This document shows, piece after piece, positions 5,553 through 23,276 of a stretch of DNA of 36,704 bases. Both the position numbers and the translations under genes were made by a program. The stretch lies in sequence record DRR378314_543; one strand, 5' to 3'. The notes under the pieces were generated by a model. That model was not told the DNA's origin and did no database searches. It saw only the letters and a list, made by a program, of their open reading frames with translations. How positions within the stretch are numbered: the stretch's first letter is position 1; each line of letters starts with the position of its first letter.

Positions 5553-5555
5553 CAA

Positions 5556-5879
5556 ATGACTTCACTACTGGACCAGATCAAACAACGCAGGTTGGACATG
5601 AGGCTGAAACAGCACGATATGATGATGCGTGTCGGCATGTCCCGTCAGCAATACCAGCGCCTGGAAACCAAGGGTAACCCCAGGCTCGATACGCTTGAAC
5701 TGGTTGCCATGGGACTGAAAAGCGAGCTGGTTCTGGTCCCCCAGGAAAAGCTGGAAGCAGTTATGGCTGTCCTGGCGAACACAACGACCGAACAACCCAC
5801 TCACGATAGCCGCCCCTCCGAACCGGAAAAGCCGCTTTCGGATGATCCCTGGCGAGGTTTGCTGGAGGATAACGAATGA
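5556..5879 (+). CDS. hipB: HipB-like XRE/Cro HTH antitoxin
   Basis: IKQRRLDMRLKQHDM...VGMSRQQYQRLETKGNPRLDTLELVAMGL is an XRE HTH. Its stop overlaps the hipA start (ATGA at 5876-5879). The start could instead be 5514. Confidence 0.82.
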   Translation: MTSLLDQIKQRRLDMRLKQHDMMMRVGMSRQQYQRLETKGNPRLDTLELVAMGLKSELVLVPQEKLEAVMAVLANTTTEQPTHDSRPSEPEKPLSDDPWRGLLEDNE

Positions 5880-7150
5880 ACGATCCAGCAAGCGAGGACG
5901 TCAATGTCCTTCAACTGACGCTTCACGGACGACTGGTGGGCTATCTGGCCGGCTTCAGGAATGGCCGCAATGTTCTGAGTTTTGTGGGCGAATTTACGAG
6001 AGACGCAAACCGCCCGACTTTCAGCCTGATCACTCACCCCCAATTTCCGAACTCCGAAAAGCTTCTCAGAGAATCCTGGGCCCGTAACCAAAGGCTTCAT
6101 CCCGCGCTATCCAACCTCTTGCCGGAAGGATCGCTCAGGGAATTGCTTGCACAGAGTTTGAAGGTTCATATCGATAACGAATTTCACCTGTTCTCCTATC
6201 TTGGGGAAGACCTGCCAGGCGCATTGATCGCCACCCCCATGGCACCCGAAGACGTTCCAGACAGCGTGCTATCCACCCACGGCAAGGCGAAGGCTGTGAA
6301 GTTCGAAAAACCCAATCTCGAAAACCGGTTCTCCCTGGCGGGCGTGCAGATGAAATTTTCCATGAAGGAAAAGGAAGGGCGCTACAACTTGACGAAGGGT
6401 GACGAACTGGGCGACTGGATTATCAAAACCCCTTCCACCAAACACAGTCATGTCCCCCTGAACGAATACACGGCAATGACCCTGGCCTCCATGGCCGGCA
6501 TCGATATCCCGGACATCAAGCTGGTGGACCTGGATAAGCTTGATAACCTTCCACCCATTAATCTACCGGAGGAGAGGCAAGCATTCGCGATCAAGCGGTT
6601 TGACCGGGATGGGCGCACGCGCATTCACATGGAGGACTTTGCCCAGATCCTGGTGAAGTATCCCCACGAAAAATACGACTCGGCGAACTACGAGCAGATC
6701 GGCAGAGTAATTTACGACTATTCCGGCGATGGCCTGGCAGACACCCAACAACTTGCCCGCCGGCTGTTAGTGAATATCCTGCTCGCCAATGGGGATGCCC
6801 ATCTGAAAAACTGGAGCCTGGTCTATCCTGACCAGGTTACGCCCCGGCTGTCACCCGCCTACGATATCGTCACAACCCGCGTTTATATCGAGAATGAGAG
6901 TGAGTTTGCGCTTAACCTGGGGAAAAACAAGCGCTGGTACACCACGACCATGAACCACTTCCAGGTCTGGGCAGAGAAGTCCGGGATACCTTGGCGGGTC
7001 ATCAAGCCCCATCTGGACGACACTCTGGAAAAAGCCCGAACCTTGTGGCCACAGGCCCTCCAAGAACTACCCATGGCGGACGCCCACAAAAACATATTGA
7101 GAGCCCACTGGCAGGCGCTGGAAGACGATTTCAGGATACAGCTCCGTTAA
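5876..7150 (+). CDS. hipA: HipA-family Ser/Thr kinase toxin
   Basis: SNLLPEG (HipA N-terminal domain), FSLAGVQMK P-loop, WIIK, IKRFDR, HMEDFAQ, NGDAHLKNWS catalytic loop and LSPAYD. Confidence 0.93.
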   Translation: MNDPASEDVNVLQLTLHGRLVGYLAGFRNGRNVLSFVGEFTRDANRPTFSLITHPQFPNSEKLLRESWARNQRLHPALSNLLPEGSLRELLAQSLKVHIDNEFHLFSYLGEDLPGALIATPMAPEDVPDSVLSTHGKAKAVKFEKPNLENRFSLAGVQMKFSMKEKEGRYNLTKGDELGDWIIKTPSTKHSHVPLNEYTAMTLASMAGIDIPDIKLVDLDKLDNLPPINLPEERQAFAIKRFDRDGRTRIHMEDFAQILVKYPHEKYDSANYEQIGRVIYDYSGDGLADTQQLARRLLVNILLANGDAHLKNWSLVYPDQVTPRLSPAYDIVTTRVYIENESEFALNLGKNKRWYTTTMNHFQVWAEKSGIPWRVIKPHLDDTLEKARTLWPQALQELPMADAHKNILRAHWQALEDDFRIQLR

Positions 7151-7152
7151 AG

Positions 7153-8436
7153 TCACACCCCCAACCGATCCCGCAACGCGTAGTACCAGGCACCCATTGC
7201 CGTCAAAGGCACCCGGAATGTTCGCCCACCCGGGAACGGGTAATGCGGCAGGCTGGCGAAGGCATCGAAACGCTCGGCTTGGCCCTGAATGGCCATCGCC
7301 AACGCCTTGCCCGCGACATGGGTGAAGGTAACGCCGTGGCCGGAGCAGCCCTGGGAATAGAACACATTATCCTGCAGCCGACCCATTTGCGGCAGGCGTG
7401 ACAGGGTGAGGAGGAAGTTACCGGTCCAGGCGTAGTCGATCTTCACATTCGCCAGTTGCGGGAAGGTTTTCAGCATATTCGGGCGAATCAGCCTCTCAAT
7501 GTTGGCCGGGTCGCGGGCGCCGTAGACCACGCCACCGCCGTAGATCAGTCGTTTGTCGCCGGACAGGCGGAAGTAGTCCAGCAGGTAGTTGCAGTCTTCC
7601 ACGCAGTTGTCCTGCGGCAGGAGTTGTCTGGCGAGAGCCTCTTCCAACGGCTCGGTGGCGATAATCTGGGAGCCGCAGGGCATGGACTTGGCGCCCAGCT
7701 GCGGCACCAGGCCGCCAAGGTAGGCATTGCCCGCCAACACCACAAACGGTGCCCGCACCTCACCTTGAGCGGTTTTCACCGTGGCTGGCTGGCCATGGAC
7801 GATGCCTGTGGCGGCTGAATGCTCGTGGATTACGCCACCGAGGGATTCCAGGGCGGCCGCCTCGCCCAGGGCCAGGTTCAGGGGGTGGATATGGCCGCCG
7901 CTGTGATCAATTGCACCGCCCACATATCGCTCGGTGCCGACCCGGGCATGAATCCCTTCCCGGTCCAGCAATTCCAGTTCTCCGTATCCGAACCGCCGCC
8001 AGAGTGCCTGCTGGTCTTCCATATGGCGAAGCTGCCGCGTATTCAGGGCCGCAAAAATGCCGCCGTCTTTCAGGTCACACTGGATGCCGTAGTCCCGTAC
8101 TCGTTGACGGATAATCTGGCTGCCCTCAAACGCCATGTTCGCCAGCAGGTTCAAATGGTCTGGCGTGGTCTGGCGCTCAATAGCGTCCAGGTCACGGCTG
8201 AAGCTGTTGACGATCTGTCCGCCATTGCGGCCGGAGGCACCCCAGCCCACGGTGGCCGCTTCCAGAACCACCACCCGGAAACCGGCTTCGGCAAGGAAGA
8301 GTGCGGTGGATAACCCGGTATAGCCAGCGCCGACCACGCACACATCGGCCTCGCAAACGCCCTGAAGCGCCGGCCGTGCCGGGGCCGGATTGGCCGACGC
8401 TGCGTAATAGGATGGAACCGGGGAATACTGGGTCAT
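7153..8436 (-). CDS. puuB: Gamma-glutamylputrescine oxidoreductase (FAD-dependent, PuuB/PauB-like)
   Basis: SYYAAS, VVGAGYTGLSTA, GASGRNGGQ, HIHPLNLALGEA, DYAWTGNFLLTLSRLPQ and GCSGHG motifs. It neighbours puuC- and puuA-like genes. Confidence 0.88.
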   Translation of the reverse strand: MTQYSPVPSYYAASANPAPARPALQGVCEADVCVVGAGYTGLSTALFLAEAGFRVVVLEAATVGWGASGRNGGQIVNSFSRDLDAIERQTTPDHLNLLANMAFEGSQIIRQRVRDYGIQCDLKDGGIFAALNTRQLRHMEDQQALWRRFGYGELELLDREGIHARVGTERYVGGAIDHSGGHIHPLNLALGEAAALESLGGVIHEHSAATGIVHGQPATVKTAQGEVRAPFVVLAGNAYLGGLVPQLGAKSMPCGSQIIATEPLEEALARQLLPQDNCVEDCNYLLDYFRLSGDKRLIYGGGVVYGARDPANIERLIRPNMLKTFPQLANVKIDYAWTGNFLLTLSRLPQMGRLQDNVFYSQGCSGHGVTFTHVAGKALAMAIQGQAERFDAFASLPHYPFPGGRTFRVPLTAMGAWYYALRDRLGV

Positions 8437-8572
8437 GGAGGTGCGCCAAATGGGTTATCAAAAGGGTTCTTGGGCAGGCAATGAAAAGGGCAATCCTGTC
8501 GCCCGCCGAGCCCAGTCTATGCCGGCTTTCAGCGCACGGGAAGACACGTTCTTGTACCTATATGGAAGGCCG

Positions 8573-8600
8573 TCGACGCGGCTCAAACACCTGCTATGAT
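8573..8600 (+). promoter_or_regulatory. Possible sigma70 promoter for puuC (extended -10 TG-C-TATGAT)
   Basis: TGCTATGAT at 8592-8600 and a weak -35 TCGACG at 8573-8578 (16-bp spacer), about 30 bp upstream of ATG 8630. Confidence 0.4.
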
Positions 8601-8629
8601 GGCCCCATTCCATTGCCTGCGAGGCTGCC

Positions 8630-10174
8630 ATGTCCGACCCTGTTTCCGCCACTTCCGCTCCCAGCTCCAACGCTTCGGTCACACCCACCACACTGGCCCA
8701 GTGGCAAGCGATGGCCGACACCCTCGCCATTGAGGGCCGCGCCTACGTTAAGGGCAGTTATCGCTGGGCGGTAAACGGTGACACTTTCCCTTCCGTCAGC
8801 CCGGTAGATGGTCGCGAGCTGGCTCAAGTGGCCAGTTGCGACAAGGCCGATGCGGACAAGGCCGTAGCCATCGCGCGAAAAGTCTTTGAGCGCGGCGACT
8901 GGCGGGAACTGGCACCGGCCAAACGCAAGGCAGTGCTGATTCGCTTTGCCGAATTGATCGAAGCCCACGGCGACGAACTGGCCCTGCTGGACACCCTCGA
9001 CATGGGAAAACCCATCAGCCATGCCCGCACGGTGGACGTACCGGCCACCACCCGTGCCATACGCTGGACCGCCGAAGCCATCGACAAGGTGTATGGGGAG
9101 CTCGCCCCCACACCCCACAACCAGATCGGCATGATTTCCCGGGAACCCATGGGCGTGGTGGCCGCCATCGTGCCTTGGAACTTCCCGATGATCATGGCGG
9201 CCTGGAAAGTTGCGCCAGCCCTGGCAACCGGTAACTCGGTGGTTCTCAAGCCGTCGGAAAAGTCGCCGCTTACGGCCATTCGCCTGGCCGCACTGGCCAC
9301 CGAAGCCGGCATCCCCGATGGCGTTTTCAATGTGCTGCCCGGCTTTGGCCACACCGTGGGCAAGGCCCTGGCCCTGCACACGGATGTGGACTGCCTGGTG
9401 TTCACCGGTTCCACCAACGTGGCCAAGCAACTGATGGTCTACGCCGGCCAGTCCAACATGAAACGGGTGTGGCTGGAGGCCGGCGGCAAGAGCCCCAACA
9501 TTGTGTTTGCCGATGCCCCGGACCTGAAAAAAGCCGCCGCCGAAGCCGCCAGTGCCATCGCCTTCAACCAGGGGGAAGTCTGCACCGCTGGTAGTCGGTT
9601 ATTGGTGGAAGAAAGCATCCGCGCTGAATTCGTCGGGCTGATCCGCGAGGCCCTCAAAACCTGGCGCCCTGGCCATCCGCTGGACCCGGCCACCACCTGC
9701 GGCGCCATCGTCGACCAGGCCCAGCTTGATCGCATCATCGACTACATTGGCATCGGCCGGTCCGAAGGGGCAACGCTGGTGGAAGGCGGGCAACGGGTGA
9801 TGGCAGAAACCGGCGGCCTGTTCGTTCAGCCCACGGTGTTTGATGGCGTGAACAACCGCATGCGCATTGCCTCGGAGGAAATCTTCGGGCCGGTGCTCTC
9901 GGTGATCGGGTTCAACACCCCCGAAGAGGCCATAAAAATCGCCAACGAGTCCATCTACGGCCTGGCCGCAGCGGTGTGGACGTCCAACATCAACACCGCC
10001 CACAAAGTGGCCAAGGCACTGCGGGCCGGCAGCGTGTGGATCAACCACTACGACGGCGGCGACATGACCGCGCCCTTCGGCGGCTTCAAGCAGTCCGGCA
10101 ATGGTCGCGACAAGTCCCTGCATGCGTTCGACAAGTACACGGAACTGAAGGCCACCTGGCTGGTGCTTGAATAG
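8630..10174 (+). CDS. puuC: Aldehyde dehydrogenase (gamma-glutamyl-gamma-aminobutyraldehyde dehydrogenase, PuuC/KauB-like)
   Basis: IVPWNFP, KPSEKSP, FTGST, LEAGGKSP, FNQGEVCTAGSR, EEIFGPV and PFGGFKQSGNGRDKSLHA (PuuC-type C-terminus). Confidence 0.9.
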   Translation: MSDPVSATSAPSSNASVTPTTLAQWQAMADTLAIEGRAYVKGSYRWAVNGDTFPSVSPVDGRELAQVASCDKADADKAVAIARKVFERGDWRELAPAKRKAVLIRFAELIEAHGDELALLDTLDMGKPISHARTVDVPATTRAIRWTAEAIDKVYGELAPTPHNQIGMISREPMGVVAAIVPWNFPMIMAAWKVAPALATGNSVVLKPSEKSPLTAIRLAALATEAGIPDGVFNVLPGFGHTVGKALALHTDVDCLVFTGSTNVAKQLMVYAGQSNMKRVWLEAGGKSPNIVFADAPDLKKAAAEAASAIAFNQGEVCTAGSRLLVEESIRAEFVGLIREALKTWRPGHPLDPATTCGAIVDQAQLDRIIDYIGIGRSEGATLVEGGQRVMAETGGLFVQPTVFDGVNNRMRIASEEIFGPVLSVIGFNTPEEAIKIANESIYGLAAAVWTSNINTAHKVAKALRAGSVWINHYDGGDMTAPFGGFKQSGNGRDKSLHAFDKYTELKATWLVLE

Positions 10175-10182
10175 TTCCCACG

Positions 10183-10207
10183 AAAAACGGCGCCCTAAGG
10201 CGCCGTT
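10183..10207 (-). terminator. Intrinsic terminator between convergent puuC and puuA
   Basis: AACGGCGCC-CTAA-GGCGCCGTT forms a 9-bp stem. The A-run on its left gives a U-tract on the minus strand; it may be bidirectional. Confidence 0.8.
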
Positions 10208-10226
10208 ATCGGATGACGGGAAGCAA

Positions 10227-11591
10227 CTAAACCGTGTGCAGGTACCAGAGATATTCCAGGTCCGAAATGGTCATCTCGAACTCGTTCAGTTCGTGCTCTT
10301 TACAGGCAACAAACACATCCAGGAATTCCCTGCCCAGATAATCCGCCATCACCGCTGACTGACCAAGCTCCCGCAGGGCATCCCGCAGGTTGTTCACCAG
10401 ACTGGCTTCGTGCTGTTCGTGAGCATTGCCCACGGTCACCGGCGGTGGTTCGATACGATTCGAGATTCCGTAATGAATGCCGGCCAACACCGCTGCCATC
10501 AGCAGGTAGGGGTTGGCGTCTGCACCCGCAACGCGGTGTTCAATTCGTAGTGCCTCAGGATCTCCGCCCGGCAGGCGCAGGCTCGCCGTGCGGTTGTCCA
10601 CCCCCCAGGTCGGCGCACAGGGCACGTAATACTCCGGGCTGAACCGGCGGTAGGAGTTGATGTTGGGGCAGAACAACGCCATGGCATCGTTCATGGTGGC
10701 CACCAGCCCGCCAACGGCCCAACGCAACCTATCGTTGGGCTCCTCGGCGTCGCCGGCAAATACATTGCGCCCGTCCCGGTCGAGCAGGCTGACGTGCAAG
10801 TGCATGCCGCTACCCGCCTGGTTGTGATAGGGCTTGGCCATGAAGGTGGTGTCCATCTCATGGTCGTAGGCCATGTTCTTGATCAGGCGCTTGAGCAGCG
10901 TGGCGTGGTCGCAGGCCTGCACCGCGTCATTCACGTAGTGCAGGTTGACCTCAAACTGGCCAGGGGCGGATTCCGCCACCAGGGCGTCCGCTGGCAGCTC
11001 CTGCTCATGGGCCGCATCCAGCACATCCGCCAGGAATTCTGCGTATTCGTCCAGATCGTCAATGGAATAGGCCTGGGTGCCCGCCGGGCGCTTGCCGGAA
11101 ATGGGCGATTTGGGTGGCTGGGGGCGGCCGGCCAGGTTTTCCTGGTCGATCAGGTAGAACTCCAGCTCATAGGCTGCGACCGGGGTCAGGCCCAGTTCCT
11201 CGAAACGCTTGACGATGTTTTGCAGCACCACGCGCGGGTCCGCAAAAAACGGCGTCTCGCGATCCAGCTCGTACATGGTCAGCAGCAGTTGGGCGGTAGG
11301 CCGCTTCTGCCAGGGCTCCATGGTGAGCGTGCCGTCAATAGGCAGGCACACTCTGTCGGCCTCGCCAATATCCAGGCCCAGGCCGGTCTCTTCCACGGTA
11401 GTGCCCTGGATATTCAGGGCAAAGATGGACGCCGGCATCGCGATGCCCCGCTCAAACACCTTGCGCAGGGTTGAAGGGTCCACGCGTTTGCCGCGGACAA
11501 TGCCGTTCATATCCGGGATCAGCAGGTCAATAAACTGCAGCTCGGGGTGCGCCTGAAGGAATGCGTCAGCGCTCGCAAAACCAGAACCCAT
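10227..11591 (-). CDS. puuA: Glutamine synthetase-like gamma-glutamylpolyamine synthetase (PuuA/PauA/SpuI-like)
   Basis: DMNGIVRGKR, ELEFYL, ESAPGQFEVN, FMAKP..QAGSGMHLHVS, NSYRRF, WGVDNRT and RIEHRVAGADANPYL motifs, in a polyamine gene context. Confidence 0.87.
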   Translation of the reverse strand: MGSGFASADAFLQAHPELQFIDLLIPDMNGIVRGKRVDPSTLRKVFERGIAMPASIFALNIQGTTVEETGLGLDIGEADRVCLPIDGTLTMEPWQKRPTAQLLLTMYELDRETPFFADPRVVLQNIVKRFEELGLTPVAAYELEFYLIDQENLAGRPQPPKSPISGKRPAGTQAYSIDDLDEYAEFLADVLDAAHEQELPADALVAESAPGQFEVNLHYVNDAVQACDHATLLKRLIKNMAYDHEMDTTFMAKPYHNQAGSGMHLHVSLLDRDGRNVFAGDAEEPNDRLRWAVGGLVATMNDAMALFCPNINSYRRFSPEYYVPCAPTWGVDNRTASLRLPGGDPEALRIEHRVAGADANPYLLMAAVLAGIHYGISNRIEPPPVTVGNAHEQHEASLVNNLRDALRELGQSAVMADYLGREFLDVFVACKEHELNEFEMTISDLEYLWYLHTV

Positions 11592-13073: not shown

Positions 13074-14180
13074 ATGTTGAAGTTGTGTAAGCCTACGGCG
13101 CTGGCCGCCGCTATTGCTGTGTCATTGGGTGCGTCTTCTGCCATGGCGGCGGAAGAAGTGCGTGTATATAACTGGTCGGATTACATCGCCGAGGACACGC
13201 TGGAGAAGTTCACCGCGGAAACCGGCATCAAGGTGATCTACGACGTCTACGACAGTAACGAGATCCTGGAAGCCGCACTGCTCTCCGGCCGCTCCGGCTA
13301 TGATCTGGTGGTGCCTTCCAACCACTACGTGGCCAAGCAGATTTCCGCCGGCGCCTTCGTGGCACTGGACCACGCCAAACTGCCGAACATGGCCAACCTG
13401 AACCCGGACCTGATGGACGATCTGGAAAAGGTGGACCCGGGCAGCCAGTACGCCATTCCCTACCTGTGGGGAACCAATGGCTATGGCTATAACGAGGGCC
13501 GTATCCAGGAAATCCTGGGGGACAGCGCGCCCACGGACTCCTGGGCCCTGGTGTTTGATCCTGCGGTGACGGGGAAACTGGCCGCCGGCGGCTGCGGCAT
13601 TGCCATGCTGGATTCCGGCGAGGAAATGGTGCGCGCGGCCATGGCCTACATCGGCCTGAACCCCAACAGCAACAACGCTGAGGACATCAAAAAAGGCGGT
13701 GAGGTCATCAAGGCAGCACGCCCGAACATCACCTACTTCCATTCCTCCCGTTACATCGCCGACCTGGCCAACGGTGACCTGTGCGTGGCTGCCGGCTATT
13801 CCGGCGACATCCTGCAGGCCGCTGCCCGTGCCGAAGAAGCCGGCAATGGCAATGTGATCCGCTACACCATTCCCAAAGAGGGCGCGGTGCTGTGGTTCGA
13901 CATGATGACCATCCCGGTCGGTGCTCCCAACGTGGAAAACGCCCAAAAACTGATGAACTTCCTGATGCGCCCGGAGATCATCGCGGACGTGACCAACTAC
14001 GTGTGGTACGCCAACCCCAACAAACCCGCCAACGAGTTTGTTGATGCCGAAATCCTCGGCGACACCAGCATCTATCCCACCGATGAAGTGATGAAGAAGC
14101 TGTACATCATGGAAGGTCGGCCACAGGACGCCCAGCGCCTGATGACCCGCACCTGGACCAACGTGAAGTCTGGTCGTTAA
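13074..14180 (+). CDS. potF: Polyamine (putrescine) ABC transporter periplasmic binding protein
   Basis: Signal peptide, then VYNWSDYI, YDVYDSNE, GYDLVVPS, PYLWGT, FHSSRYI, GYSGD and IPKEGA..WFD motifs. Confidence 0.92.
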   Translation: MLKLCKPTALAAAIAVSLGASSAMAAEEVRVYNWSDYIAEDTLEKFTAETGIKVIYDVYDSNEILEAALLSGRSGYDLVVPSNHYVAKQISAGAFVALDHAKLPNMANLNPDLMDDLEKVDPGSQYAIPYLWGTNGYGYNEGRIQEILGDSAPTDSWALVFDPAVTGKLAAGGCGIAMLDSGEEMVRAAMAYIGLNPNSNNAEDIKKGGEVIKAARPNITYFHSSRYIADLANGDLCVAAGYSGDILQAAARAEEAGNGNVIRYTIPKEGAVLWFDMMTIPVGAPNVENAQKLMNFLMRPEIIADVTNYVWYANPNKPANEFVDAEILGDTSIYPTDEVMKKLYIMEGRPQDAQRLMTRTWTNVKSGR

Positions 14181-14183
14181 GGG

Positions 14184-15302
14184 GTGGAAAACGGCAACAG
14201 CGCCTCCGCGAAAGCGGAGGTGCTACTCAGCATTCAGGGCATATCCAAGAGCTTCGACGGCACGCTGGCCGTGAACAATGTGAGCCTGGACATCCACAAG
14301 GGTGAAATCTTCGCCCTGCTGGGTGGTTCCGGCTCTGGCAAATCGACACTGCTGCGAATGCTGGCGGGCTTTGAGGCGCCCAACGCCGGTCGCGTGGTAC
14401 TGGATGGCCAGAACATTACCGCCCTGCCCCCATACCTGCGGCCCACCAATATGATGTTCCAGTCCTACGCGCTGTTCCCCCATATGACGGTGGAGCAGAA
14501 CATTGCCATGGGGCTGAAGCAGGACAAGCTGCCCAAGGGCGAGATCCGCGACCGGGTCGAGGCCATGCTGAAGCTGGTCAAGATGGAGAGCTTTGCCAAA
14601 CGCAAGCCCCAGCAGCTCTCCGGCGGCCAACAGCAGCGTGTGGCCCTGGCCCGTTCCCTGGCCAAACGCCCGAAACTGCTGCTGCTCGACGAACCCATGG
14701 GCGCACTGGACAAGAAACTGCGCACGGAAATGCAGCTGGAACTGGTGGAAATCCTGGAACAGGTGGGCGCCACCTGCCTGATGGTCACCCATGACCAGGA
14801 AGAGGCCATGACCATGGCCAGCCGTATTGCCATCATGGCCCAGGGCCGTATTGCCCAGGTGGGATCCCCCATCGATATCTACGAAAGCCCGAACAGCCGC
14901 ATGACCGCCGAGTTTATCGGCTCCGTGAATATCTTCGAGGCCCGTATCCGTGAGGACGAGTCCGACAGTATTACACTGGAGAGCACCGCCCTGGACGCCC
15001 CGGTGTTCATTGACCGAGGCGTCAGCACCCCGGCGGAGAGCACCGCCACACTGGTTGCCCTGCGCCCGGAGAAAGTCTACATCTCAAGCGAAAAGCCGGT
15101 CGGTGACACTAACTGGAGCCGTGGCACGGTCGACAACATCGCCTATCTGGGGGATATCAGTTGCTACTACGTAAAGCTGGCCAGCGGTCAACGGGTCCAG
15201 GCCACCATGGCCAACGTGGAACGCCGTGGCGAGCGGCCAACCTGGGGCGATACGGTGTTCGTGTCCTGGGAAGCCTCCAGCCCCATCCTGCTGTGGAACT
15301 GA
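14184..15302 (+). CDS. potG: Polyamine ABC transporter ATP-binding protein
   Basis: Walker A GGSGSGKS, FQSYALFPHM, LSGGQQQRVALAR, LLLLDEP and VTHDQEEA, with a TOBE-like C-terminus. Confidence 0.93.
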   Translation: MENGNSASAKAEVLLSIQGISKSFDGTLAVNNVSLDIHKGEIFALLGGSGSGKSTLLRMLAGFEAPNAGRVVLDGQNITALPPYLRPTNMMFQSYALFPHMTVEQNIAMGLKQDKLPKGEIRDRVEAMLKLVKMESFAKRKPQQLSGGQQQRVALARSLAKRPKLLLLDEPMGALDKKLRTEMQLELVEILEQVGATCLMVTHDQEEAMTMASRIAIMAQGRIAQVGSPIDIYESPNSRMTAEFIGSVNIFEARIREDESDSITLESTALDAPVFIDRGVSTPAESTATLVALRPEKVYISSEKPVGDTNWSRGTVDNIAYLGDISCYYVKLASGQRVQATMANVERRGERPTWGDTVFVSWEASSPILLWN

Positions 15303-15306
15303 TACC

Positions 15307-16236
15307 GTGGCCCAAAACCTGACGTCTATCCCGCTGAGGGAGCGGGTGCGTGCCGTGTTGTTCCACCGCCGGGTGGTGTTCGGCATTCCCTTTCTGTGGT
15401 TGCTGCTGTTCTTTCTGCTGCCGTTTGCGCTGGTGCTGAAGATCAGTTTCTCCTCGGCGGTGATGGCCATTCCCCCCTACCAGCCGGTGTTCACCTTTGT
15501 GGACGACACCTTCTCGGTGGTGGTGAATTTCAGCAACTACCTGTTCCTGCTGTCCGACAGCCTGTACATCGCCGCGTACTGGGGCTCGGTCAAGATCGCG
15601 TTCGTTTCCACCCTGGTATGTTTGCTGATCGGCTACCCCATGGCCTATGCCATGGCGCGCGCCTCGGCCAGGATGCAGCTGGTGTTATTGCTGATGGTGA
15701 TGCTGCCGTCGTGGACCTCGTTCCTGATCCGCGTGTACGCCTGGATGGGCATCCTCGGTAACCAGGGCCTGCTGAACAACCTGCTGATGTGGCTGGGTGT
15801 GATCAGCGAGCCGTTGAAACTGCTGAACACCAACTTTGCGGTGGTGCTGGGCATCGCCTACGCCTACCTGCCGTTTATGGTGCTGCCCATCTACACCAAC
15901 CTGGTAAAGCTGGACGTACGCCTTCTCGAAGCAGCATCCGACCTGGGCTGCCGTAGCCTGACCACCTTCTGGGCCATCACGCTGCCGCTGTCGAAAGCGG
16001 GCATCATTGCCGGTTCCATGCTGGTGTTCATACCTGCGGTGGGCGAGTTCGTGATTCCGGAACTGCTGGGCGGGCCAGATACCCTGATGATCGGCAAGGT
16101 GCTTTGGGAAGAGTTCTTCAACAACCGCGACTGGCCGGTGGCGTCTTCCCTGGCCATCGTGATGCTGGCGTTGCTGCTGATCCCCATAGTGCTGTTCCAT
16201 CGACTCCAGGCGAGGGAGATGGAAAAGGATGGTTAA
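15307..16236 (+). CDS. potH: Polyamine ABC transporter permease
   Basis: Multiple TM segments, PSWTSFLIRVYAW, EAASDLG loop and NNRDWPVAS. Start set at GTG 15307, just after the potG stop. Confidence 0.9.
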   Translation: MAQNLTSIPLRERVRAVLFHRRVVFGIPFLWLLLFFLLPFALVLKISFSSAVMAIPPYQPVFTFVDDTFSVVVNFSNYLFLLSDSLYIAAYWGSVKIAFVSTLVCLLIGYPMAYAMARASARMQLVLLLMVMLPSWTSFLIRVYAWMGILGNQGLLNNLLMWLGVISEPLKLLNTNFAVVLGIAYAYLPFMVLPIYTNLVKLDVRLLEAASDLGCRSLTTFWAITLPLSKAGIIAGSMLVFIPAVGEFVIPELLGGPDTLMIGKVLWEEFFNNRDWPVASSLAIVMLALLLIPIVLFHRLQAREMEKDG

Positions 16237-17047
16237 GTCGCAGCCGTTCAGTTTCTCGAAGGTGATGCTGGTACTGGGCCTGCTGTTCCTGTACCTGCCG
16301 ATGCTGGTGTTGATCGTCTATTCCTTCAACGCCTCACGCCTGGTGTCGGTATGGGCGGGGTTCTCGGTTCACTGGTACGGCGAACTGTTCCGCGATCAGC
16401 AGATTCTCTCAGCGGTATGGATGAGCCTGAAGATTGCCTTCTACTCCGCCAGTATGGCGGTGTGCCTGGGCACCCTGTGCGCCTTCGTAATGACCCGGTT
16501 CAAGCGTTTGCGGGGGCGCACGCTGCTGTCCAGCATGATCAGTGCGCCGCTGGTCATGCCCGAGGTCATCACTGGCTTGTCGCTGTTGCTGCTGTTCGTG
16601 CAGATGGCGCAAACCATCGGTTGGCCGGTGGATCGGGGCATGGCTACGATATGGATTGCCCACACCACCTTCTGTAGCGCCTACGTGGCCGTCGTGGTGA
16701 GCGCCCGGTTGCGGGAGGTGGATCGTTCCGTGGAGGAAGCCGCCATGGACCTCGGCTGTACACCGCTGAAGACGTTCTTCGTGATCACCCTGCCGGTGAT
16801 TGCGCCGGCGCTGGTGTCCGGATGGCTACTGGCATTCACGCTGTCGCTGGACGACCTGGTCATCGCCAGCTTTGTCTCCGGGCCCGGGGCGACTACACTG
16901 CCAATGGTGGTATTCTCCTCCGTGCGAATGGGGGTGTCACCCAAGATCAACGCACTGGCCACGATCATTATCCTGACGGTGTCCCTCATTGCATTCATTG
17001 CCTGGTATTTGATGCGACGAGGCGAGGAAAAACGGAAAAGGAGCTAA
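16229..17047 (+). CDS. potI: Polyamine ABC transporter permease
   Basis: FLYLPMLVLIVYSFN, PLVMPEVITG, EEAAMDLG and FTLSLDDLVIASF motifs. It overlaps the potH stop. Confidence 0.92.
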   Translation: MVKSQPFSFSKVMLVLGLLFLYLPMLVLIVYSFNASRLVSVWAGFSVHWYGELFRDQQILSAVWMSLKIAFYSASMAVCLGTLCAFVMTRFKRLRGRTLLSSMISAPLVMPEVITGLSLLLLFVQMAQTIGWPVDRGMATIWIAHTTFCSAYVAVVVSARLREVDRSVEEAAMDLGCTPLKTFFVITLPVIAPALVSGWLLAFTLSLDDLVIASFVSGPGATTLPMVVFSSVRMGVSPKINALATIIILTVSLIAFIAWYLMRRGEEKRKRS

Positions 17048-17050
17048 CCA

Positions 17051-19018
17051 TTGGATCTCGCCCAGGCCTCATTGCAATTTGATGCCGCCCTGGCAGACTT
17101 TGCCCGCGCCCGCAGCGCGTCGCCTCAGGCCTCCAGCCTGGGCATACTTGAACGGGCGCGACTACTGATGACGCTGCCCGGCGGTTTCGACGTGATTTAC
17201 CGCCGGGTTCGCGCGCTTGAGTCCGCGGGCATCTTTGGCACCAGCGACTGGGCCAAACCCGCCATCCTGCAGCCAGCCCTGGCAAAACATTCGCTGCGCG
17301 AAGCCGGCGCCGTGACCACCGTTGTTGAAGCCATCAGCGAGATCCGCCTGCTGGCCGTCGTTCGGGGTGATTATTTCCACCCCGGCATTTCCTCCGAGCA
17401 GGCCCGGCATTTCCTCACCCAGGTGATGGCCCTGAACCTGGACCTGCTGTCCGGCACACTCACCGAAGCCGATCGCGAACGGCCGAAGCAACTCGGCCCC
17501 CTGGTACTGGGGCTGTATCAATACCTGATCTCCCACCTTGGCTACGACAACCTGCTGGACAGCCTGGTGGCAGAGGTGTGGCGGCTGCTGGAACAGGGGC
17601 CTGTGCAGGTGGACAGTATCTGCGACATGATCGGCCAGATCGCCAAATGCCTGTACGACCCGGCATTGAAAACCACCGGCACCGCCGACGCCACCCGCCT
17701 GGTGAGAGCGCTGTTTGCTCCCACGCCCGGCAGCCGCGAAGACCCCGGGCTGGACGTGTATCAACTACGCCTGGCCAAAATGGACGACGTTGAGCTGTCC
17801 GCGGAAGCCAATGAGTTCGCACGCAATATGCACGATACCGGGCTGGCGTCGCCGTACCATGCGGTGTTTTTACGATTCCTGCGCACCAGTGACGAGGAAG
17901 AGCTTATCCCCACCGCTTTGGGGCTGACGATGACGGGGCTGGACGATTTCTATTGCTACAACCAGCTCGTGGACGCGCTGATTGATGAAGCCATCCATCC
18001 GGAAACCTGTCAGGCGGTCTATGGCCTGACGATGATGCTGGAGCGGGGTTCGCTGTTCACGCCGCCGGTCGCCCAGGCGCTCTGGCGTCAGATCAAGCTC
18101 AAACTGTCGACAGAGACCGAGCAGTTGCTCACAGAGGCCTTCGGCGATGCCGTGCCACCGAGGGTGTTCCTGCTGGCCGGGGTGCTCAACCTGTTGGGGC
18201 AGCCCCTGGGCGTGGGGCAAGGCAATAACCCCAGCTGCCAGTCCGCCATCGGGCTGTCCATGTGGGCCGCCAACGAGGCCGACTACCTGCTTCAGGTATT
18301 GGCCTGGGCCGCCCGCGACAACGAGGTATTAAGCCGGTTCGAGGGCTGGGAAGTGTCCTCGAAGAACCTGGAGCCGGGACTGGTCGAAGACACACCGATG
18401 GATGTGGACCCAGTGTCGCTGATCCTGATTCCCCACCTGGACCGGATCTACGGTGAGATGTGGCGCCGCTGTGAAGACCGTACCGACGACGCCCATCGCT
18501 GGATCAACCCGGAATTCTATGGCTGGTGGGTCAGCCACGGTTTCAAGGTGGTGGCCGATATCCACACAGGAGAAGTCACGGACTACGACGATTTCATCCG
18601 GCACTTCTACGCCAGTTATCACCCCTACTACAACGGTAATATTCCGGTGATCCACCACCAGCCAGCCGGTATCGCCGTGACGGACAGCGCCGCGCGCTTC
18701 GTCGGTCGCCATGCGATCGCGATTTTGCGGGTTGCCTTGAGCCCCAGCAACGAAATGCGGGTGTATTTCTTCAACCCCAACAACGACAGCGGCCAGGACT
18801 GGGGCCAGGGCATTACCTGCTCAACACGGGGCAACGGTGAAATTCGCGGCGAAGCTTCCCTGCCCGTGGCGGAATTTGCTTCTCGCCTCTACGCCTTCCA
18901 CTACGACACCCTGGAACTGGGAGATCTGGCCGCCATACCCGAGGCCGACGTGGCGCGGGTTAAGTCGTTGGGTTACGGCAGTTGGGCGGCGCCTTTACCC
19001 CTGTCCCGAACGGTCTGA
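17051..19018 (+). CDS. Uncharacterised 655-aa protein with a putative C-terminal papain/calpain-like Cys-His-Asn catalytic domain
   Basis: Long ORF with host-like codon usage. TTG start 3 bp after the potI stop, with SD AAAGGAG (17037-17043) inside potI. Motifs GQGNNPSCQSA, GRHAIAIL and VYFFNPNNDSGQDWG. The CDS is well supported; the fold call is inference. Confidence 0.8.
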   Translation: MDLAQASLQFDAALADFARARSASPQASSLGILERARLLMTLPGGFDVIYRRVRALESAGIFGTSDWAKPAILQPALAKHSLREAGAVTTVVEAISEIRLLAVVRGDYFHPGISSEQARHFLTQVMALNLDLLSGTLTEADRERPKQLGPLVLGLYQYLISHLGYDNLLDSLVAEVWRLLEQGPVQVDSICDMIGQIAKCLYDPALKTTGTADATRLVRALFAPTPGSREDPGLDVYQLRLAKMDDVELSAEANEFARNMHDTGLASPYHAVFLRFLRTSDEEELIPTALGLTMTGLDDFYCYNQLVDALIDEAIHPETCQAVYGLTMMLERGSLFTPPVAQALWRQIKLKLSTETEQLLTEAFGDAVPPRVFLLAGVLNLLGQPLGVGQGNNPSCQSAIGLSMWAANEADYLLQVLAWAARDNEVLSRFEGWEVSSKNLEPGLVEDTPMDVDPVSLILIPHLDRIYGEMWRRCEDRTDDAHRWINPEFYGWWVSHGFKVVADIHTGEVTDYDDFIRHFYASYHPYYNGNIPVIHHQPAGIAVTDSAARFVGRHAIAILRVALSPSNEMRVYFFNPNNDSGQDWGQGITCSTRGNGEIRGEASLPVAEFASRLYAFHYDTLELGDLAAIPEADVARVKSLGYGSWAAPLPLSRTV

Positions 19019-22000
19019 ATCCATTGGTAGAAAACAGGCACCAGCAAGGTACCAAGAATGGTGGCTGCCACCATACCGCTCAACACGGTAATACCGAGGC
19101 TTACTCGACTGGCGGCACCAGCACCGCTGGCAAATACCAATGGCAACACACCAAGAACGAACGATAGCGCTGTCATCAGTACGGCCCTGAAACGCAGTAC
19201 GGCGGCTTTCTGGGCGGCTTCCTGAGCGCTCAGGCCGGATTGCCGTAGCTGCATCGCAAACTCCACGATGAGGATGGCTGTTTTGGTCGACAACCCAACC
19301 AACAGCACGAGCCCCACCTGAGCATAAATATTGTTGGCCATCCCAAACAGCCAAAGCCCGCCCATGGCACCAAACATGGCCAGAGGAACGGCACCGATCA
19401 CCGCCAACGGCAGGCTCCAGCTTTCATACTGTGCCACCAGGAACAGATACACGAACACTATAGCCAGCAGAAAGATCACCGTGGCCAGGCTGCCCGCCTC
19501 AATTTCCTGCAAACTCTGACCGGCCCAACTGAATTCGTAACCCTGGGGTAGTTTCTCGGACAACGCCGCCATGGTGTTCAGGGCATCGCCACTGGCGAAT
19601 CCGGCGGCCGCTTCACCAGAGATGGTCACCGCGCGCTTGAGGTTGAAGTGCTGGATACTGGAAGGCCCCAAAATGGGCTCCAGCGACGCCAGGGTTGTCA
19701 GAGGAACCATGTCGCCCTGCTGATTGCGAACGAAGTAATAGGAAAGGTCCTCCGGCTTTTGTCGGAAGCTGCCCTCCGCCTGCAACAGTACCCGGTAATT
19801 CTTGCCGAATCGGGTAAAGTCATTGACGTATAGCGAGCCGAGCTGGGTTTGCAGGGTGGAGAAAATATCAGACAACTGAATACCCAGCGCCTTGGCCTTG
19901 TTTCGATCCACCTGTAACAGATACTGGGGAATGTTGGCGCGATAGGTACTGTAAACGCGGGACAGGGCGTCTTGCTGATTGGCCTCGTAGATCAGCCCGT
20001 TCATCACCTGCGCCAGTTCGGACACGTCTCGGCCCAGGTTATCCTGAAGGCGGAAATCGAAGCCCGCCGAGGTCCCAAGGCCCGGAATGGGAGGCGGATT
20101 AAACACCATCACCTGAGCCTCCGCGACCGTCCATAACCGCGACGACAGCCGCGGTATGCCCGCTGATAGCTTCAAGGCGGCGTCTTCCCGCTCCTCCCAA
20201 TCCTTGAGCATGGCGATGCCGAGGCCATTATTGGTATTGGAGCCGCCCAGCAGGGAAAAACCGGATACGGTGATGAAGTCCGTCACTGCCGGGTCGTCCA
20301 GCACCATGCCGGTAACCTTTTCAAGAACGTTGTCCGTGCGTTCAAGCGCGGCGGCATCTGGCAACTGCACATCCACAAAGAGGAACCCCTGATCCTCAGG
20401 TGGCACGAAAGCCGTCGGCACTGATTTGAACAGCCCCGCACTGGCAAGAAGGACGGCCGCCAAGCCAACACCAACAAGCACGCCCTTTCGAAGCAGACGC
20501 GAAACCACCCCGTCGTATCCGCGGGTGCTTCTGACAATCAATTGTTCAAAAGGCCTGAGCCAACGGATCGGCTGCCCCTGATTACGACCAAGCAACGACA
20601 CACACAATGCAGGGCTGAGCGTCAGCGCGTTGATCGAGGAAATGATCACCGCCACGGAAATGGTGACCGAAAACTGCTTGTACAATTCACCGGTAATACC
20701 CGGCATGAAGCCCACCGGCACGAATACCGCCAACAGCACCAGTGTCGTGGCGATCACCGGGCCTGTGACCTCCGCCATGGCTTTGCTCACCGCCTCGCGG
20801 ATGGGCAGGCTTTCTTCTTTCAGGATACGCTCGACGTTTTCGATCACCACGATGGCGTCATCAACCACAATGCCAATGGCAAGTACCAGCCCAAACAGGG
20901 TGATGGTGTTGATGGAGTAACCCAGCACCGACATGATCGCAAAGGTACCAATCAGTGACACTGGAATGGCAATGCTGGGGATGAGAGTCGCCCGCCAGTT
21001 CTGCAGAAACAGAAAGACCACCAGAATCACCAACCCGATGGCCTGGAAAAGCGTTACGACGACTTCGTCAATGGAGCGGCTGATAAACTCGGTGGTGTCA
21101 TAGAGAATGCTATAGCCAACGCCGTCCGGGAACCCGACAGCGGCCTCGGCCACCACCTGTTTAACCCGTCCCGCAACATCCAGCGCATTGGCGCTGGGCA
21201 ACTGGTAAATCACGACAAACGCGGTGTCCTGATTGTTCAGCTTGGCGGTGGAGCCGTAGGAACGCGAGCCCAGTTCAATGTTCGCCACATCCCGCAGGCG
21301 CACAAACCCGCCATCGGGCTTGGCCCGGAGGATTGTCTGGGCAAATTCGTCCGGGTCCGACAGGCGCTCCCGACTCTGGATGCTGTAAACGAATTGCTGC
21401 CCTTGCGGCACGGGTGGCTGCCCAAGCTTACCCGCGGCCACAATCTGGTTCTGTTCCCGCAATGCCGCAGACACGTCTGTAACGGTGACATCCAGGGAAG
21501 ACATCCGCCTCGGGTCCAGCCACACCCGCATACTGTAGTCTTTTGCGCCCATGACCTCGGCCGACCCTACGCCGGGGACCCGTCCCAGAGCTTCGACCAG
21601 GTTGTTGGAGGCGTAATTACTGAGAAACACACCGTCCAGATCCGGGCGATCAGACGTGAGGTTGATGCCCATCAGCATATTACCGGCCTGCTTGCTGACG
21701 ACCACGCCCTGGCGACGCACTTCATCGGGCAGAGATGGCTCGGCCAGCGCAACACGGTTCTGCACATTCACCTGGGCGATGTCGGTATCGGTGCCGCTTT
21801 CAAACGTCAGGGTTATTTTTGCCGTACCGTCACTGGACGCGGTTGATTCAATATAGATCATGCCCTCGACCCCATTGAGCTGCTGCTCAATGGGACGAAC
21901 AACCGCTTCCTCAACAACCTGGGAGCTGGCTCCGGGCAACGACGCTGTCACTTGAATCTGCGGCGGCGCCATGTCCGGATACATATTGACGGGCAATCCC

Positions 22001-22086
22001 CGAAGCGCCAGGAGACCTGCAAGGGTAATCAGGATGGAAATAACAAACGCGAATTTCGGTCGTTGAATGAAGACGCTACTGATCAT
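18973..22086 (-). CDS. RND efflux transporter permease subunit (HAE1, AcrB/MexB-like)
   Basis: 1037 aa. FIQRPKFA start, SMRVWLDP, GIVVDDAIVVIENVER (proton-relay Asp pair), GLSTKTAILIVEFA and LRFRAVLMT motifs. Confidence 0.94.
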   Translation of the reverse strand: MISSVFIQRPKFAFVISILITLAGLLALRGLPVNMYPDMAPPQIQVTASLPGASSQVVEEAVVRPIEQQLNGVEGMIYIESTASSDGTAKITLTFESGTDTDIAQVNVQNRVALAEPSLPDEVRRQGVVVSKQAGNMLMGINLTSDRPDLDGVFLSNYASNNLVEALGRVPGVGSAEVMGAKDYSMRVWLDPRRMSSLDVTVTDVSAALREQNQIVAAGKLGQPPVPQGQQFVYSIQSRERLSDPDEFAQTILRAKPDGGFVRLRDVANIELGSRSYGSTAKLNNQDTAFVVIYQLPSANALDVAGRVKQVVAEAAVGFPDGVGYSILYDTTEFISRSIDEVVVTLFQAIGLVILVVFLFLQNWRATLIPSIAIPVSLIGTFAIMSVLGYSINTITLFGLVLAIGIVVDDAIVVIENVERILKEESLPIREAVSKAMAEVTGPVIATTLVLLAVFVPVGFMPGITGELYKQFSVTISVAVIISSINALTLSPALCVSLLGRNQGQPIRWLRPFEQLIVRSTRGYDGVVSRLLRKGVLVGVGLAAVLLASAGLFKSVPTAFVPPEDQGFLFVDVQLPDAAALERTDNVLEKVTGMVLDDPAVTDFITVSGFSLLGGSNTNNGLGIAMLKDWEEREDAALKLSAGIPRLSSRLWTVAEAQVMVFNPPPIPGLGTSAGFDFRLQDNLGRDVSELAQVMNGLIYEANQQDALSRVYSTYRANIPQYLLQVDRNKAKALGIQLSDIFSTLQTQLGSLYVNDFTRFGKNYRVLLQAEGSFRQKPEDLSYYFVRNQQGDMVPLTTLASLEPILGPSSIQHFNLKRAVTISGEAAAGFASGDALNTMAALSEKLPQGYEFSWAGQSLQEIEAGSLATVIFLLAIVFVYLFLVAQYESWSLPLAVIGAVPLAMFGAMGGLWLFGMANNIYAQVGLVLLVGLSTKTAILIVEFAMQLRQSGLSAQEAAQKAAVLRFRAVLMTALSFVLGVLPLVFASGAGAASRVSLGITVLSGMVAATILGTLLVPVFYQWIQTVRDRGKGAAQLP

Positions 22087-23276
22087 TACTCAACCTCGCC
22101 AGCGACGGCGAGGGCACCGGTATCCGGATCAATACGCTTTTGTACCGGGTTAACAGTGGCGCCCGAACGGACCTTCTGCAGCCCCTCGACAACCACCTGC
22201 TCACCAACTTCGAGACCGGAATTGGCAACCATCATGGCACCGCGGCGTGGCCCTGTTTTGATAAAACGCTGCGCCACTGTCTGATTGCTGTCGACCACCA
22301 GGACAAACTTTCCCTCAATGGTTTCCTGCACCGCCACCTGGGGCACAAGTATCTGGGGCTCGCCAGCCTGCCCCTCCACATGAAGCGTCACGTAGAGACC
22401 TGGAAGGAGTACCGCCGAGGCATTGGGGAACACAGCCCTCATCGCAACGGTGCCCGTACTGGCATCGGTGCGCACATCCGCGAAATCGAGCGCACCTGCT
22501 TGAGAATAGCGTTCGCCATCCGGCAATGTGAGATACAGCGACAGGTTGCTTACGATATCCTCGGAGGCATCCCGTCCCGCACGCCGGAAGGAGACATAAT
22601 CCGCTTCGTTCAACTGGAACTCCACATAGATGGGGTCTGTCACGAGAAGCTCAGTAATCGCGCCGTTGGACGGGCTTACGACAGCCCCTACATCAAAATT
22701 CAGTTTTCCGATCCAGCCATCGAATGGGGCCCGTATTTCGGTGTACCCGAGGTTATTGGTCGCTCTTTGTACGGCAGCTTCTGCCGCCTGTAACCTTCCT
22801 TCGGCGGCATTAAAGCGATCCCTGAGCTTGTCCAGGTCAGCCTCTGAGAGGTAGCCCTTGCCTGCCACGTTTTCGCCGCGCTTGAGATTTCTGGTGGCTG
22901 ACTCCACTTCGGCACGGGACGCTTCCAGCTCTGCTTTTGCCTGGCTCAGATCCGCCGTTGCATTGGTGTCTTCGAGGCTCACAAGCAGCTGCCCCGCTTC
23001 CACCTGCGCGCCTTCCTGAAAATGAATGGCTTTGATTTCCGCCTCTACACGGGCGGATATGTCAGCCTTCGCAGACGCAGCCGTTCTGGCGACAAACTCG
23101 CGGCTTGGACGCACCTCGGCGTTTTCGAGCACCACGACCGAGACGGACACCGGCGCAGCCGCTGTCACCTCAGTGGGTTCGGAACAACCGCTGACGGCAA
23201 GAAACGAGACAACCGACACCAGAACAGCAACCACCGGATGCCAGACGTTTCGGTTATGACAACGGGAGCTCATCAT
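22086..23276 (-). CDS. RND efflux periplasmic adaptor (membrane fusion protein)
   Basis: Lipobox-like LAVSGC, ISARVEAEI, alpha-hairpin, YTEIRAPFDG, DASTGTV..RAVFPN and LLPG motifs. One-base overlap with the permease start. Confidence 0.9.
   Translation of the reverse strand: MMSSRCHNRNVWHPVVAVLVSVVSFLAVSGCSEPTEVTAAAPVSVSVVVLENAEVRPSREFVARTAASAKADISARVEAEIKAIHFQEGAQVEAGQLLVSLEDTNATADLSQAKAELEASRAEVESATRNLKRGENVAGKGYLSEADLDKLRDRFNAAEGRLQAAEAAVQRATNNLGYTEIRAPFDGWIGKLNFDVGAVVSPSNGAITELLVTDPIYVEFQLNEADYVSFRRAGRDASEDIVSNLSLYLTLPDGERYSQAGALDFADVRTDASTGTVAMRAVFPNASAVLLPGLYVTLHVEGQAGEPQILVPQVAVQETIEGKFVLVVDSNQTVAQRFIKTGPRRGAMMVANSGLEVGEQVVVEGLQKVRSGATVNPVQKRIDPDTGALAVAGEVE

Follow-up and report, generated by a model that had tools for sequence, protein, structure and literature searches.

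An unnamed family of predicted calpain-like thiol enzymes and its usual neighbour, an ATP-grasp carboxylate-amine ligase

The stretch of sequence record DRR378314_543 analysed here (the window, 36,704 nucleotides) carries, at 17051–19018 on the plus strand and directly behind a potFGHI-like polyamine transporter operon, an open reading frame (ORF) of 655 amino acids (aa) with a TTG start. Its product, which we call X655, belongs to an unnamed family that combines a helical N-terminal domain with a catalytic domain of predicted papain/calpain fold; X stands for the homologues of X655 throughout. We propose that X655 is a cytoplasmic calpain-like enzyme of peptidase clan CA that would act as a thiol hydrolase (or transferase) on an amide bond made by an ATP-grasp ligase, a reading to which we assign a probability of about 0.55. 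We read X655 as acting on a ligase-made amide because X normally adjoins a conserved carboxylate-amine ligase gene; both this link to the ligase product and the thiol catalysis we infer from residue conservation, a structural model and neighbour statistics. The pairing with this unusually conserved ligase, which holds at the level of the family, is a more interesting result than the adjacency of X655 to potI.

Family extent, conserved residues and predicted fold

At least 2100 proteins (90% clustering) match X655, and a search of 1.84 billion representative sequences returned 253 clusters (50% identity) at E ≤ 1e-3. The nearest relatives (95–96% identity) are proteins of Marinobacter salarius, M. 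algicola and strains close to them, and those homologues that carry a name are all called "hypothetical protein" save one labelled "HDOD domain-containing". Full-length members have 600–690 residues and extend down to about 30% identity, each aligning as one stretch that spans nearly the whole query, so the two-domain architecture is fixed in the family. X655 itself matched no family in Pfam (E up to 0.01) or NCBIfam, and no phage record; among plasmid records the sole match was a 1.8-Mb Halomonas replicon carrying the same ligase–X pair, unannotated. Neither X655 nor the ATP-grasp ligase matched a PADLOC defence model. In the ESM Atlas the whole protein matched unnamed clusters only, and its catalytic part reached at most 0.79 against named clusters, which gave no lead. 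Designed pentatricopeptide-repeat (PPR) proteins returned by a profile search of the PDB were dismissed as repeat artefacts, the individual stretches having E > 100.

The putative catalytic residues lie in the C-terminal half of the protein. Q390-G-N-N-P-S-C396 (18218–18238, plus strand) would provide the oxyanion-hole Gln and the nucleophile Cys (C396, TGC at 18236–18238); H554 (CAT, 18710–18712), at the start of HAIAIL and within strand 550–563 of the model described below, is the putative general base; and N575 (AAC, 18773–18775), the putative third member of the triad, comes right after strand 569–574 and is followed by P576 and then by Q582-x-W584-G. The segment YFFNPNNDSGQDWG, which contains N575, begins at residue 572, and H554 and N575 are 21 residues apart. 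These motifs, their codons and the His–Asn spacing had been reported in a preliminary description of this DNA, made from the sequence alone, and were confirmed on the sequence. X655 is acidic (83 D+E against 52 K+R), and no transmembrane segment or signal-like N-terminus was found in it: the highest 19-residue Kyte–Doolittle mean is 1.52, compared with 2.89 in PotI, in agreement with the earlier statement that neither feature is obvious.

An alignment of homologues around Q390, C396, H554 and N575, which the preliminary description had called for, found all four residues invariant or nearly so. Among 43 full-length homologues, 29–46% identical to X655, Q390 and C396 are invariant (43/43), and only P0184 lacks H554 and N575, which the other 42 share. 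A second sample came from a scan of one genome per species, which found 593 stretches with a relative; the best 80 were taken with 8-kb flanks (loci L001–L080), a set that is biased to relatives of a Marinobacter query and in which most genomes belong to saline or marine genera. All 82 copies (81 in these loci, L021 having two, plus that of the window) retain Gln, Cys, His and Asn, including 32 beside which no ATP-grasp gene was found (28 solitary and 4 without upstream sequence). Eleven further positions that were checked are kept across the 82 copies with a single deviation, W584L. In the 43 aligned homologues the C-terminal half is also invariant at D453, S456, P525, R560, R570, Y572, P576, Q582, W584, E597, G600, E601, S603 and H617, and the N-terminal domain at W67, L73, E93 and R99. 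That X655 is a catalytically dead scaffold (a pseudo-peptidase) is scarcely credible against this retention in every locus copy and in 42 of the 43 diverse homologues; P0184, without its His and Asn, is what speaks for it.

A full-length AlphaFold2 model built with the 43-sequence family alignment (mean predicted local distance difference test score, pLDDT, 91.3; predicted template modelling score, pTM, 0.90) divides the protein into two parts. Residues 1 to ~385 (17051–18205, plus strand) form an all-alpha, solenoid-like domain according to the DSSP assignment of the model, and the helical N-terminal region of roughly 380 aa that had been anticipated is thus entirely helical in a confident model. 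Residues ~386–655 (18206–19015, plus strand) form the catalytic domain. C396 is the first residue of helix 396–408, and in a separate model of residues 335–655 (pLDDT 93.6) the Cys again heads its helix (C62 of helix 62–74). In the model, the sequence order Gln, Cys, His, Asn and the placement of these residues on the secondary structure are as expected of a papain fold.

When the domain model was compared with the PDB in Foldseek, ranks 1–10 were all calpain cores (those of calpain-1, -2, -3 and -8, or whole m-calpain), with E values of 5.8e-3 to 1.2e-2, probabilities of 0.84–0.97 and template modelling (TM) scores of 0.30–0.37. Cathepsins L and B, bleomycin hydrolase and staphopain follow, and only clan CA is represented among the 50 best matches listed; CHAP and transglutaminase folds are absent from these 50, and neither was matched in Pfam. 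The whole model gave weak matches (best E 0.076), in which calpain protease cores recur at probabilities of 0.7–0.9. The helical domain had no significant structural match, ARM/importin folds reaching a probability of 0.33 at most. Together, these data support the catalytic domain being a new, very divergent clan-CA family, predicted to have calpains as its nearest solved relatives. The papain/calpain-like fold put forward in the preliminary description is supported at clan level by conservation, the model and the weak Foldseek matches to calpain cores. We did not file X655 in the calpain family itself because the Peptidase_C2 profile (PF00648) was matched by 0 of 43 members at E up to 1.

Calpains carry the motifs QG...C, HA-hydrophobic and N-P...W-G, and the motifs of X655 resemble them in shape. 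The calpain core (MEROPS C2, PF00648) is also the best structural match to X655 and shares its order of catalytic residues: the Gln, the Cys that opens a helix, and then His and Asn on consecutive strands. X655 differs in having no detectable sequence match to PF00648, in TM scores of 0.30–0.38, in seven extra residues between N-P and W-G relative to the calpain motif, and in the ~385-residue N-terminal helical domain, which is unique to the X family. In most bacterial calpain homologues the peptidase domain is C-terminal, as in X655, and these homologues lack the calcium-binding sites of the eukaryotic calpain core (Rawlings 2015; PMC4631099). The available part of that survey of bacterial calpains makes no mention of ATP-grasp, Marinobacter or Halomonas (PMC4631099).

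An ATP-grasp ligase as the usual neighbour

Clustering of the ORFs flanking X identified one recurrent neighbour, an ATP-grasp carboxylate-amine ligase of ~410 aa present in 49 of the 80 loci. This count was obtained by a six-frame hidden Markov model (HMM) search; ORF-based calling gave 40 loci, because at high-GC loci the ligase was masked by a longer antisense ORF ("cluster 23") or X itself had not been called. The ligase gene lies directly upstream of X on the same strand in 43 loci, upstream and divergent in five, and downstream in one; X is solitary in 27 loci with upstream sequence available, and the remaining four have no upstream sequence. Gaps between ligase and X range from −4 to 109 nucleotides (nt) in the 34 same-strand pairs measured, and X is probably co-transcribed with the ligase in paired loci. 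Such loci were found in Halomonadaceae, Marinimicrobium, Saccharospirillum, Nitrincola and Oceanimonas, among others, as well as in seven Nocardia and one Dietzia. No third conserved gene stands beside the pair, the flanks of which vary by lineage.

The neighbour is named "carboxylate--amine ligase" or "ATP-grasp domain-containing protein" at NCBI, and 23 of 23 members matched Pfam ATP-grasp_4 with 24–26 bits, just below the cut-off of 27. Its nearest solved sequences are the L-amino acid ligases 4wd3 and 3vot (ATP-grasp_4), which are of similar size (~410 aa); the match is weak (E ~2e-3, ~115 residues aligned), and with Pfam scores below the cut-off it allows no substrate to be inferred. The ligase is the better conserved partner: over 36 pairs its median pairwise identity is 84.7%, against 71.9% for X (helical domain 66.5%, catalytic domain 77.6%), and between Halomonas and Nocardia the identities are 80% (ligase) and 70% (X). 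In a wider protein search with the ligase of Marinobacter sp. DUT-3 as query, identities of 88–94% were seen in proteins bearing the names of Marinobacter, Zhongshania, Halomonas, Methylonatrum, Porticoccus and others. Such high identity of both proteins across phyla implies, on this sequence evidence, that ligase and X are strongly constrained and have been transferred together, as a module, between Gammaproteobacteria and Actinomycetota.

Many Halomonadaceae loci share an extended −10-like element, CGTGTATGGT, which was read by eye 55–80 nt upstream of the ligase start; it occurs in L042, L043, L048, L051, L056, L060, L061, L068–L070 and L073, and its recurrence suggests that the ligase–X module has its own promoter. 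An Rfam search of the window and six loci gave no riboswitch or other element at gathering scores. Among the ligases of L036–L080, the gene at L048 6651–7910 may serve as an example; that of L047 (Nocardia testacea; 6638–7910) is read in two overlapping frames (6638–7387 and 7113–7910), which indicates a frameshift, either in a pseudogene or from a sequencing error.

The neighbourhood data bear on two alternatives in which X would not simply undo a ligase-made bond. One is a stand-alone, calpain-like regulatory endoprotease of folded proteins, with the helical domain recognising the substrate and the ligase adjacency being incidental or regulatory. Calpain protease cores as the best fold matches, a large conserved helical domain that suggests binding of a macromolecule, and the 27 loci in which X has no ligase would all suit such an enzyme. 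Against it stand the 43 same-strand, short-gap loci: adjacency is hard to call incidental when the arrangement recurs across two phyla with a ligase of unusually high conservation, and we consider this endoprotease quite unlikely.

The other alternative is a biosynthetic partner, whose acyl-enzyme would hand a ligase-made acyl or peptidyl group to an amine in the manner of phytochelatin synthase or BtrH and so build an oligomer or modified metabolite. It draws on the same ligase neighbour as the reading we prefer, and the invariant charged residues round the core (D453, R560, R570, E597, E601, H482 and H617) would fit a defined small substrate. According to the part of PMC10318531 available, phytochelatin synthase and the BtrH acyltransferase cluster with calpains, and the papain-like family DUF3335 is fused to putative peptide ligases. 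However, a third conserved gene for a carrier, exporter or precursor is missing from flanks that differ among lineages, and the Pfam families of phytochelatin synthase and BtrH were unmatched by the 43 members at E up to 1; a biosynthetic role therefore seems unlikely to us.

The solitary copy behind potFGHI

The X655 of the window falls among solitary paralogues, in a clade in which the catalytic residues and the other invariant positions are all retained. In unrooted trees of 76–81 X copies (FastTree, and IQ-TREE in a quick run) it groups with the copy of M. salarius R9SW1 (Shimodaira–Hasegawa-like approximate likelihood-ratio test, SH-aLRT, 97), within a 7-row clade (99) and a 12-row Marinobacter clade (100), and ligase-linked copies are found on both sides of the tree midpoint. 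Both kinds of copy may occur in one organism: Marinobacter sp. DUT-3 has a solitary X (L008) and a ligase-linked X (L027), and proteins named for M. adhaerens, M. szutsaonensis and Marinobacter sp. BW6 occur among both the X and the ligase homologues. The simplest reading is that solitary copies would be paralogues of the module's second gene, the direction of change being our reading of an unrooted tree. L021 (4050–9920) holds a divergent ligase followed by tandem X paralogues (5874–7880 and 7884–9920) that fall in different parts of the tree, one of them with solitary Halomonas copies; this tandem may capture how solitary paralogues arose.

At the junction with the transporter operon, the TAA stop of potI (17045–17047) is followed by CCA and then by the in-frame TTG of X655 at 17051, leaving a gap of 3 nt. 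A Shine–Dalgarno-like aaaaggag (17036–17043, plus strand) lies within the last potI codons, with its GGAG (17040–17043) 7 nt upstream of the TTG. The arrangement described earlier, with the ORF 3 nt past the potI stop and its Shine–Dalgarno sequence inside potI, was reproduced in its coordinates, and X655 does stand fifth in line behind potFGHI, translationally coupled, on the same strand, after a 3-nt gap and with no terminator-like site. A consensus scan of the junction gave no promoter-like site and no convincing terminator. From this junction, co-transcription of X655 with potI is plausible, and the X655 of the window is probably translated from the potFGHI transcript. The TTG and the Shine–Dalgarno sequence are kept in the five closest loci (L001–L005) regardless of upstream content, and database proteins of close relatives share the same start (MDLAQAS...). 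X655 also looks native, because its GC content at third codon positions (GC3, 0.77) resembles that of the pot genes (0.78–0.81).

Orthologous potFGHI (>90% identity) lies upstream of X in only four of the 80 loci, L002–L005, in all of which X is at least 89% identical. In L004, potI abuts X exactly as in the window; in L005 it is ~110–140 nt away (potI ORF end 7887); and in L002 and L003 an opposite-strand ORF of ~1 kb with methyltransferase domains lies between the pot genes and X. In M. salarius R9SW1 (L001), with a protein 96% identical, potFGHI is gone and X follows a divergent gene of the endonuclease/exonuclease/phosphatase family. Positions 7905–7965 of L001 nevertheless align to 16846–16906 of the window (score 95 against a shuffle maximum of 27), and 7965–8008 align to 17016–17058, a second fragment of the potI 3′ end; these fragments indicate that the transporter genes were deleted there. 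A tblastn search with PotI of the 500 nt upstream of X in the 80 loci gave matches only in L004, L005, L001 (4e-9), L011 (1e-3) and L002 (0.017). As far as these sequence comparisons go, the potI–X adjacency is ancestral to a shallow Marinobacter subclade (~88% identity or more) and absent elsewhere. We take the abutment in the window to be a local operon fusion and not evidence of a polyamine substrate.

The functional link to polyamines suggested in the preliminary description does not hold up on these data, since homologues are rarely near polyamine genes and the transporter was lost without loss of X in R9SW1. It would have made X655 a polyamine-conjugate amidase (of the gamma-glutamyl-polyamine or glutathionylspermidine type) or a protein–polyamine transferase tied to PotFGHI uptake. 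There are several observations in its favour: the 3-nt gap and internal Shine–Dalgarno sequence; an adjacency older than the divergence of the closest relatives, with potI intact in L004 and L005 and remnants in L001, L011 and L002; a puu-like gene set upstream (glutamine-synthetase-like ligase, aldehyde dehydrogenase, DAO oxidase) in which no Peptidase_C26 was seen among the ORFs scanned; a PotABCD-like transporter next to a ligase–X pair; and a conserved partner that is itself a carboxylate-amine ligase, the class to which glutathionylspermidine synthetase belongs. The PotABCD-like transporter lies directly upstream of the pair in the Saccharospirillum locus L061 and is an independent, unrelated case. 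Beyond L001, L002, L004, L005 and L011, PotI gave no match in the 500 nt upstream of X, the neighbours of other solitary copies are unrelated to polyamines, and the CHAP and transglutaminase folds that such activities would call to mind are outside the 50 best fold matches. In the Vreelandella loci, nearby genes resembling potI proved to belong to the sulfate transporter CysPTWA and not to polyamine uptake. Taken together, a polyamine-dedicated enzyme seems to us rather improbable.

The neighbours of other solitary copies include TPM phosphatase, DUF2959, catalase-peroxidase, patatin, amidase and HPP genes, among others. Six loci of three lineages (L006, L009, L016, L022, L031 and L033) have a solitary X with an OsmF-type glycine-betaine ATP-binding cassette (ABC) transporter, made up of a binding protein, two permeases and an ATPase, at a distance of one to three genes. 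We regard the associations with transporters, Pot and OsmF-type alike, as a lead and not as evidence.

The transporter operon of the window (all genes on the plus strand) begins with a potF-like gene for a periplasmic polyamine-binding protein at 13074–14180 (NCBIfam PotF NF007962 with E 8.8e-124 and 413 bits, short of the equivalog cut-off of 636; also Pfam SBP_bac_8). It is followed by a potG-like ABC ATPase gene at 14184–15302 (PotG NF008621, E 1.7e-164; potA subfamily TIGR01187, 412.8 bits, above the cut-off of 355.6), a potH-like permease gene at 15226–16236 as the ORF is listed (PotH NF007963, E 1.3e-131), which probably starts further downstream than listed, since the family profile is matched only from residue 46 on, and a potI-like permease gene at 16229–17047 (PotI NF007889, E 7.1e-129). 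Upstream of the transporter, window positions 4993–11591 hold a set resembling genes for putrescine utilisation: an AIG2/gamma-glutamyl-cyclotransferase-like gene (4993–5487), a flavin adenine dinucleotide (FAD) oxidase of the DAO type (7153–8436, minus strand), an aldehyde dehydrogenase (8630–10174, plus strand) and a glutamine-synthetase-family ligase (10227–11591, minus strand), which in NCBIfam scores best against gamma-glutamylputrescine synthetase (220 bits, short of the cut-off of 650). A PuuD-type hydrolase (Peptidase_C26) was not seen among the window ORFs scanned.

Downstream, and outside the transcription unit, a convergent gene at 18973–22086 (minus strand) encodes a resistance-nodulation-division (RND) efflux permease (Pfam ACR_tran, NCBIfam NF000282) that is absent in L001; its 3′ end overlaps the final 46 nt of the X655 gene (18973–19018), and its adaptor gene is at 22086–23276. 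Relatives without the RND genes (e.g. L001) end in ...GYGSWAASDD at 650 aa, and the window's protein and two database proteins of 655 aa end in ...AAP(L/S)PLSRTV; from this difference in tails, the final codons of X655 seem to have been rewritten when the RND module was inserted. Three other ORFs of the window were recorded: a WYL/helix-turn-helix regulator (1467–2423) and a HipA-family kinase (HipA_C and Couple_hipA; 5876–7150), both unrelated to X655, and an ORF of 468 aa at the left edge (56–1462) that matched no Pfam family at E ≤ 1e-5.

Proposed action and its significance

In the mechanism that we propose for X655 as an enzyme acting on a ligase-made amide, the ~385-residue helical domain would be packed against the ~270-residue catalytic core and would hold the substrate or a partner. 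C396, at its helix N-terminus, would attack the amide or peptide carbonyl; H554, oriented by N575, would serve as the base, and Q390 would form the oxyanion hole. The resulting thioester acyl-enzyme would most likely be hydrolysed, but an amine might take the place of water and receive the acyl group (transfer). An amidase or transferase of amide conjugates had earlier been preferred to a general protease; the conserved carboxylate-amine ligase next door favours that choice of chemistry, and it is the polyamine substrate attached to it, together with the absence of CHAP and transglutaminase folds from the 50 best matches, that counts against the original form of the idea.

A number of observations weigh against the reading of X655 as a calpain-like partner of the ligase. 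With regard to the fold, papain-like Pfam families were matched by 0 of 43 X members even at E up to 1 (there were scattered single matches only), a sequence search of the PDB found no chain matching X655, and no fold match reached E ≤ 1e-3, with TM scores of 0.30–0.38 and root-mean-square deviations of 8–11 Å. With regard to the partnership, no ATP-grasp homologue was found anywhere in the 36.7-kb window, and the ligase adjoins X in none of the nine informative members of the window's 12-row clade. Solitary copies make up 27 of the 76 loci with upstream sequence and have heterogeneous neighbours, which means that the X enzyme may work without the ligase. Ligase–X fusions were seen neither among the 150 best representatives, the longest of which has 745 aa, nor in a weak search among proteins of at least 1148 residues. 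Finally, gene adjacency by itself does not establish that X acts on the ligase product.

The closest functional parallel may be glutathionylspermidine/trypanothione synthetase-amidase, in which an ATP-grasp-type synthetase is fused to a papain-like amidase of the CHAP type, as described in the part of PMC2427367 available. By analogy, an ATP-dependent carboxylate-amine ligase would in both cases be paired with a Cys–His enzyme of the papain superfamily able to undo the same bond. The two systems differ in that ligase and X are two unfused genes, the thiol enzyme is calpain-like and not CHAP, the ligase resembles L-amino-acid ligases, and polyamines have no family-level link to X. Clan-CA domains beside amidoligases have a precedent in other papain-like families; DUF3335, for one, is coupled to peptide ligases of the GNAT type (PMC10318531, in the part available). 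X655 belongs to none of these and matches no papain-like Pfam family. The X655 family is not described in the available parts of either source (PMC2427367, PMC10318531). Our literature search found no pairing of a calpain-like protein with ATP-grasp, or of a carboxylate-amine ligase with a cysteine peptidase; the amidoligase comparison of Iyer et al. (2009) may hold one.

A more specific scheme, which we hold only tentatively, is that of a writer and an eraser, a pair not described before: the ligase would attach one amino acid or a short peptide to some conserved target in the cell, from which the X655-type enzyme would remove it, solitary paralogues being erasers recruited by operons that take up small cationic solutes. 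If so, the helical domain would recognise either an abundant metabolite or a protein modified at a terminus or on a side chain, and the pair would be a bacterial analogue of the tubulin tyrosine ligase/vasohibin or glutathionylspermidine synthetase/amidase cycles, owing its presence in both Gammaproteobacteria and Actinomycetota to horizontal transfer. Solitary erasers beside PotFGHI or OsmF-type transporters would then act on imported or stress-formed conjugates.

For annotation, the potFGHI junction is recent and confined to the level of strains, and is an unfit basis for naming X655. What can be attached to this sizeable family, which has had no name and no Pfam or NCBIfam model, is a calpain-fold thiol enzyme, as predicted by the model, whose helical domain is fixed and whose partner is a conserved ATP-grasp ligase. 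Bacterial calpain-like cores would accordingly reach further than sequence profiles detect, and an anonymous ORF becomes a testable two-enzyme system, in which co-expression of ligase and X could reveal the product of the ligase.

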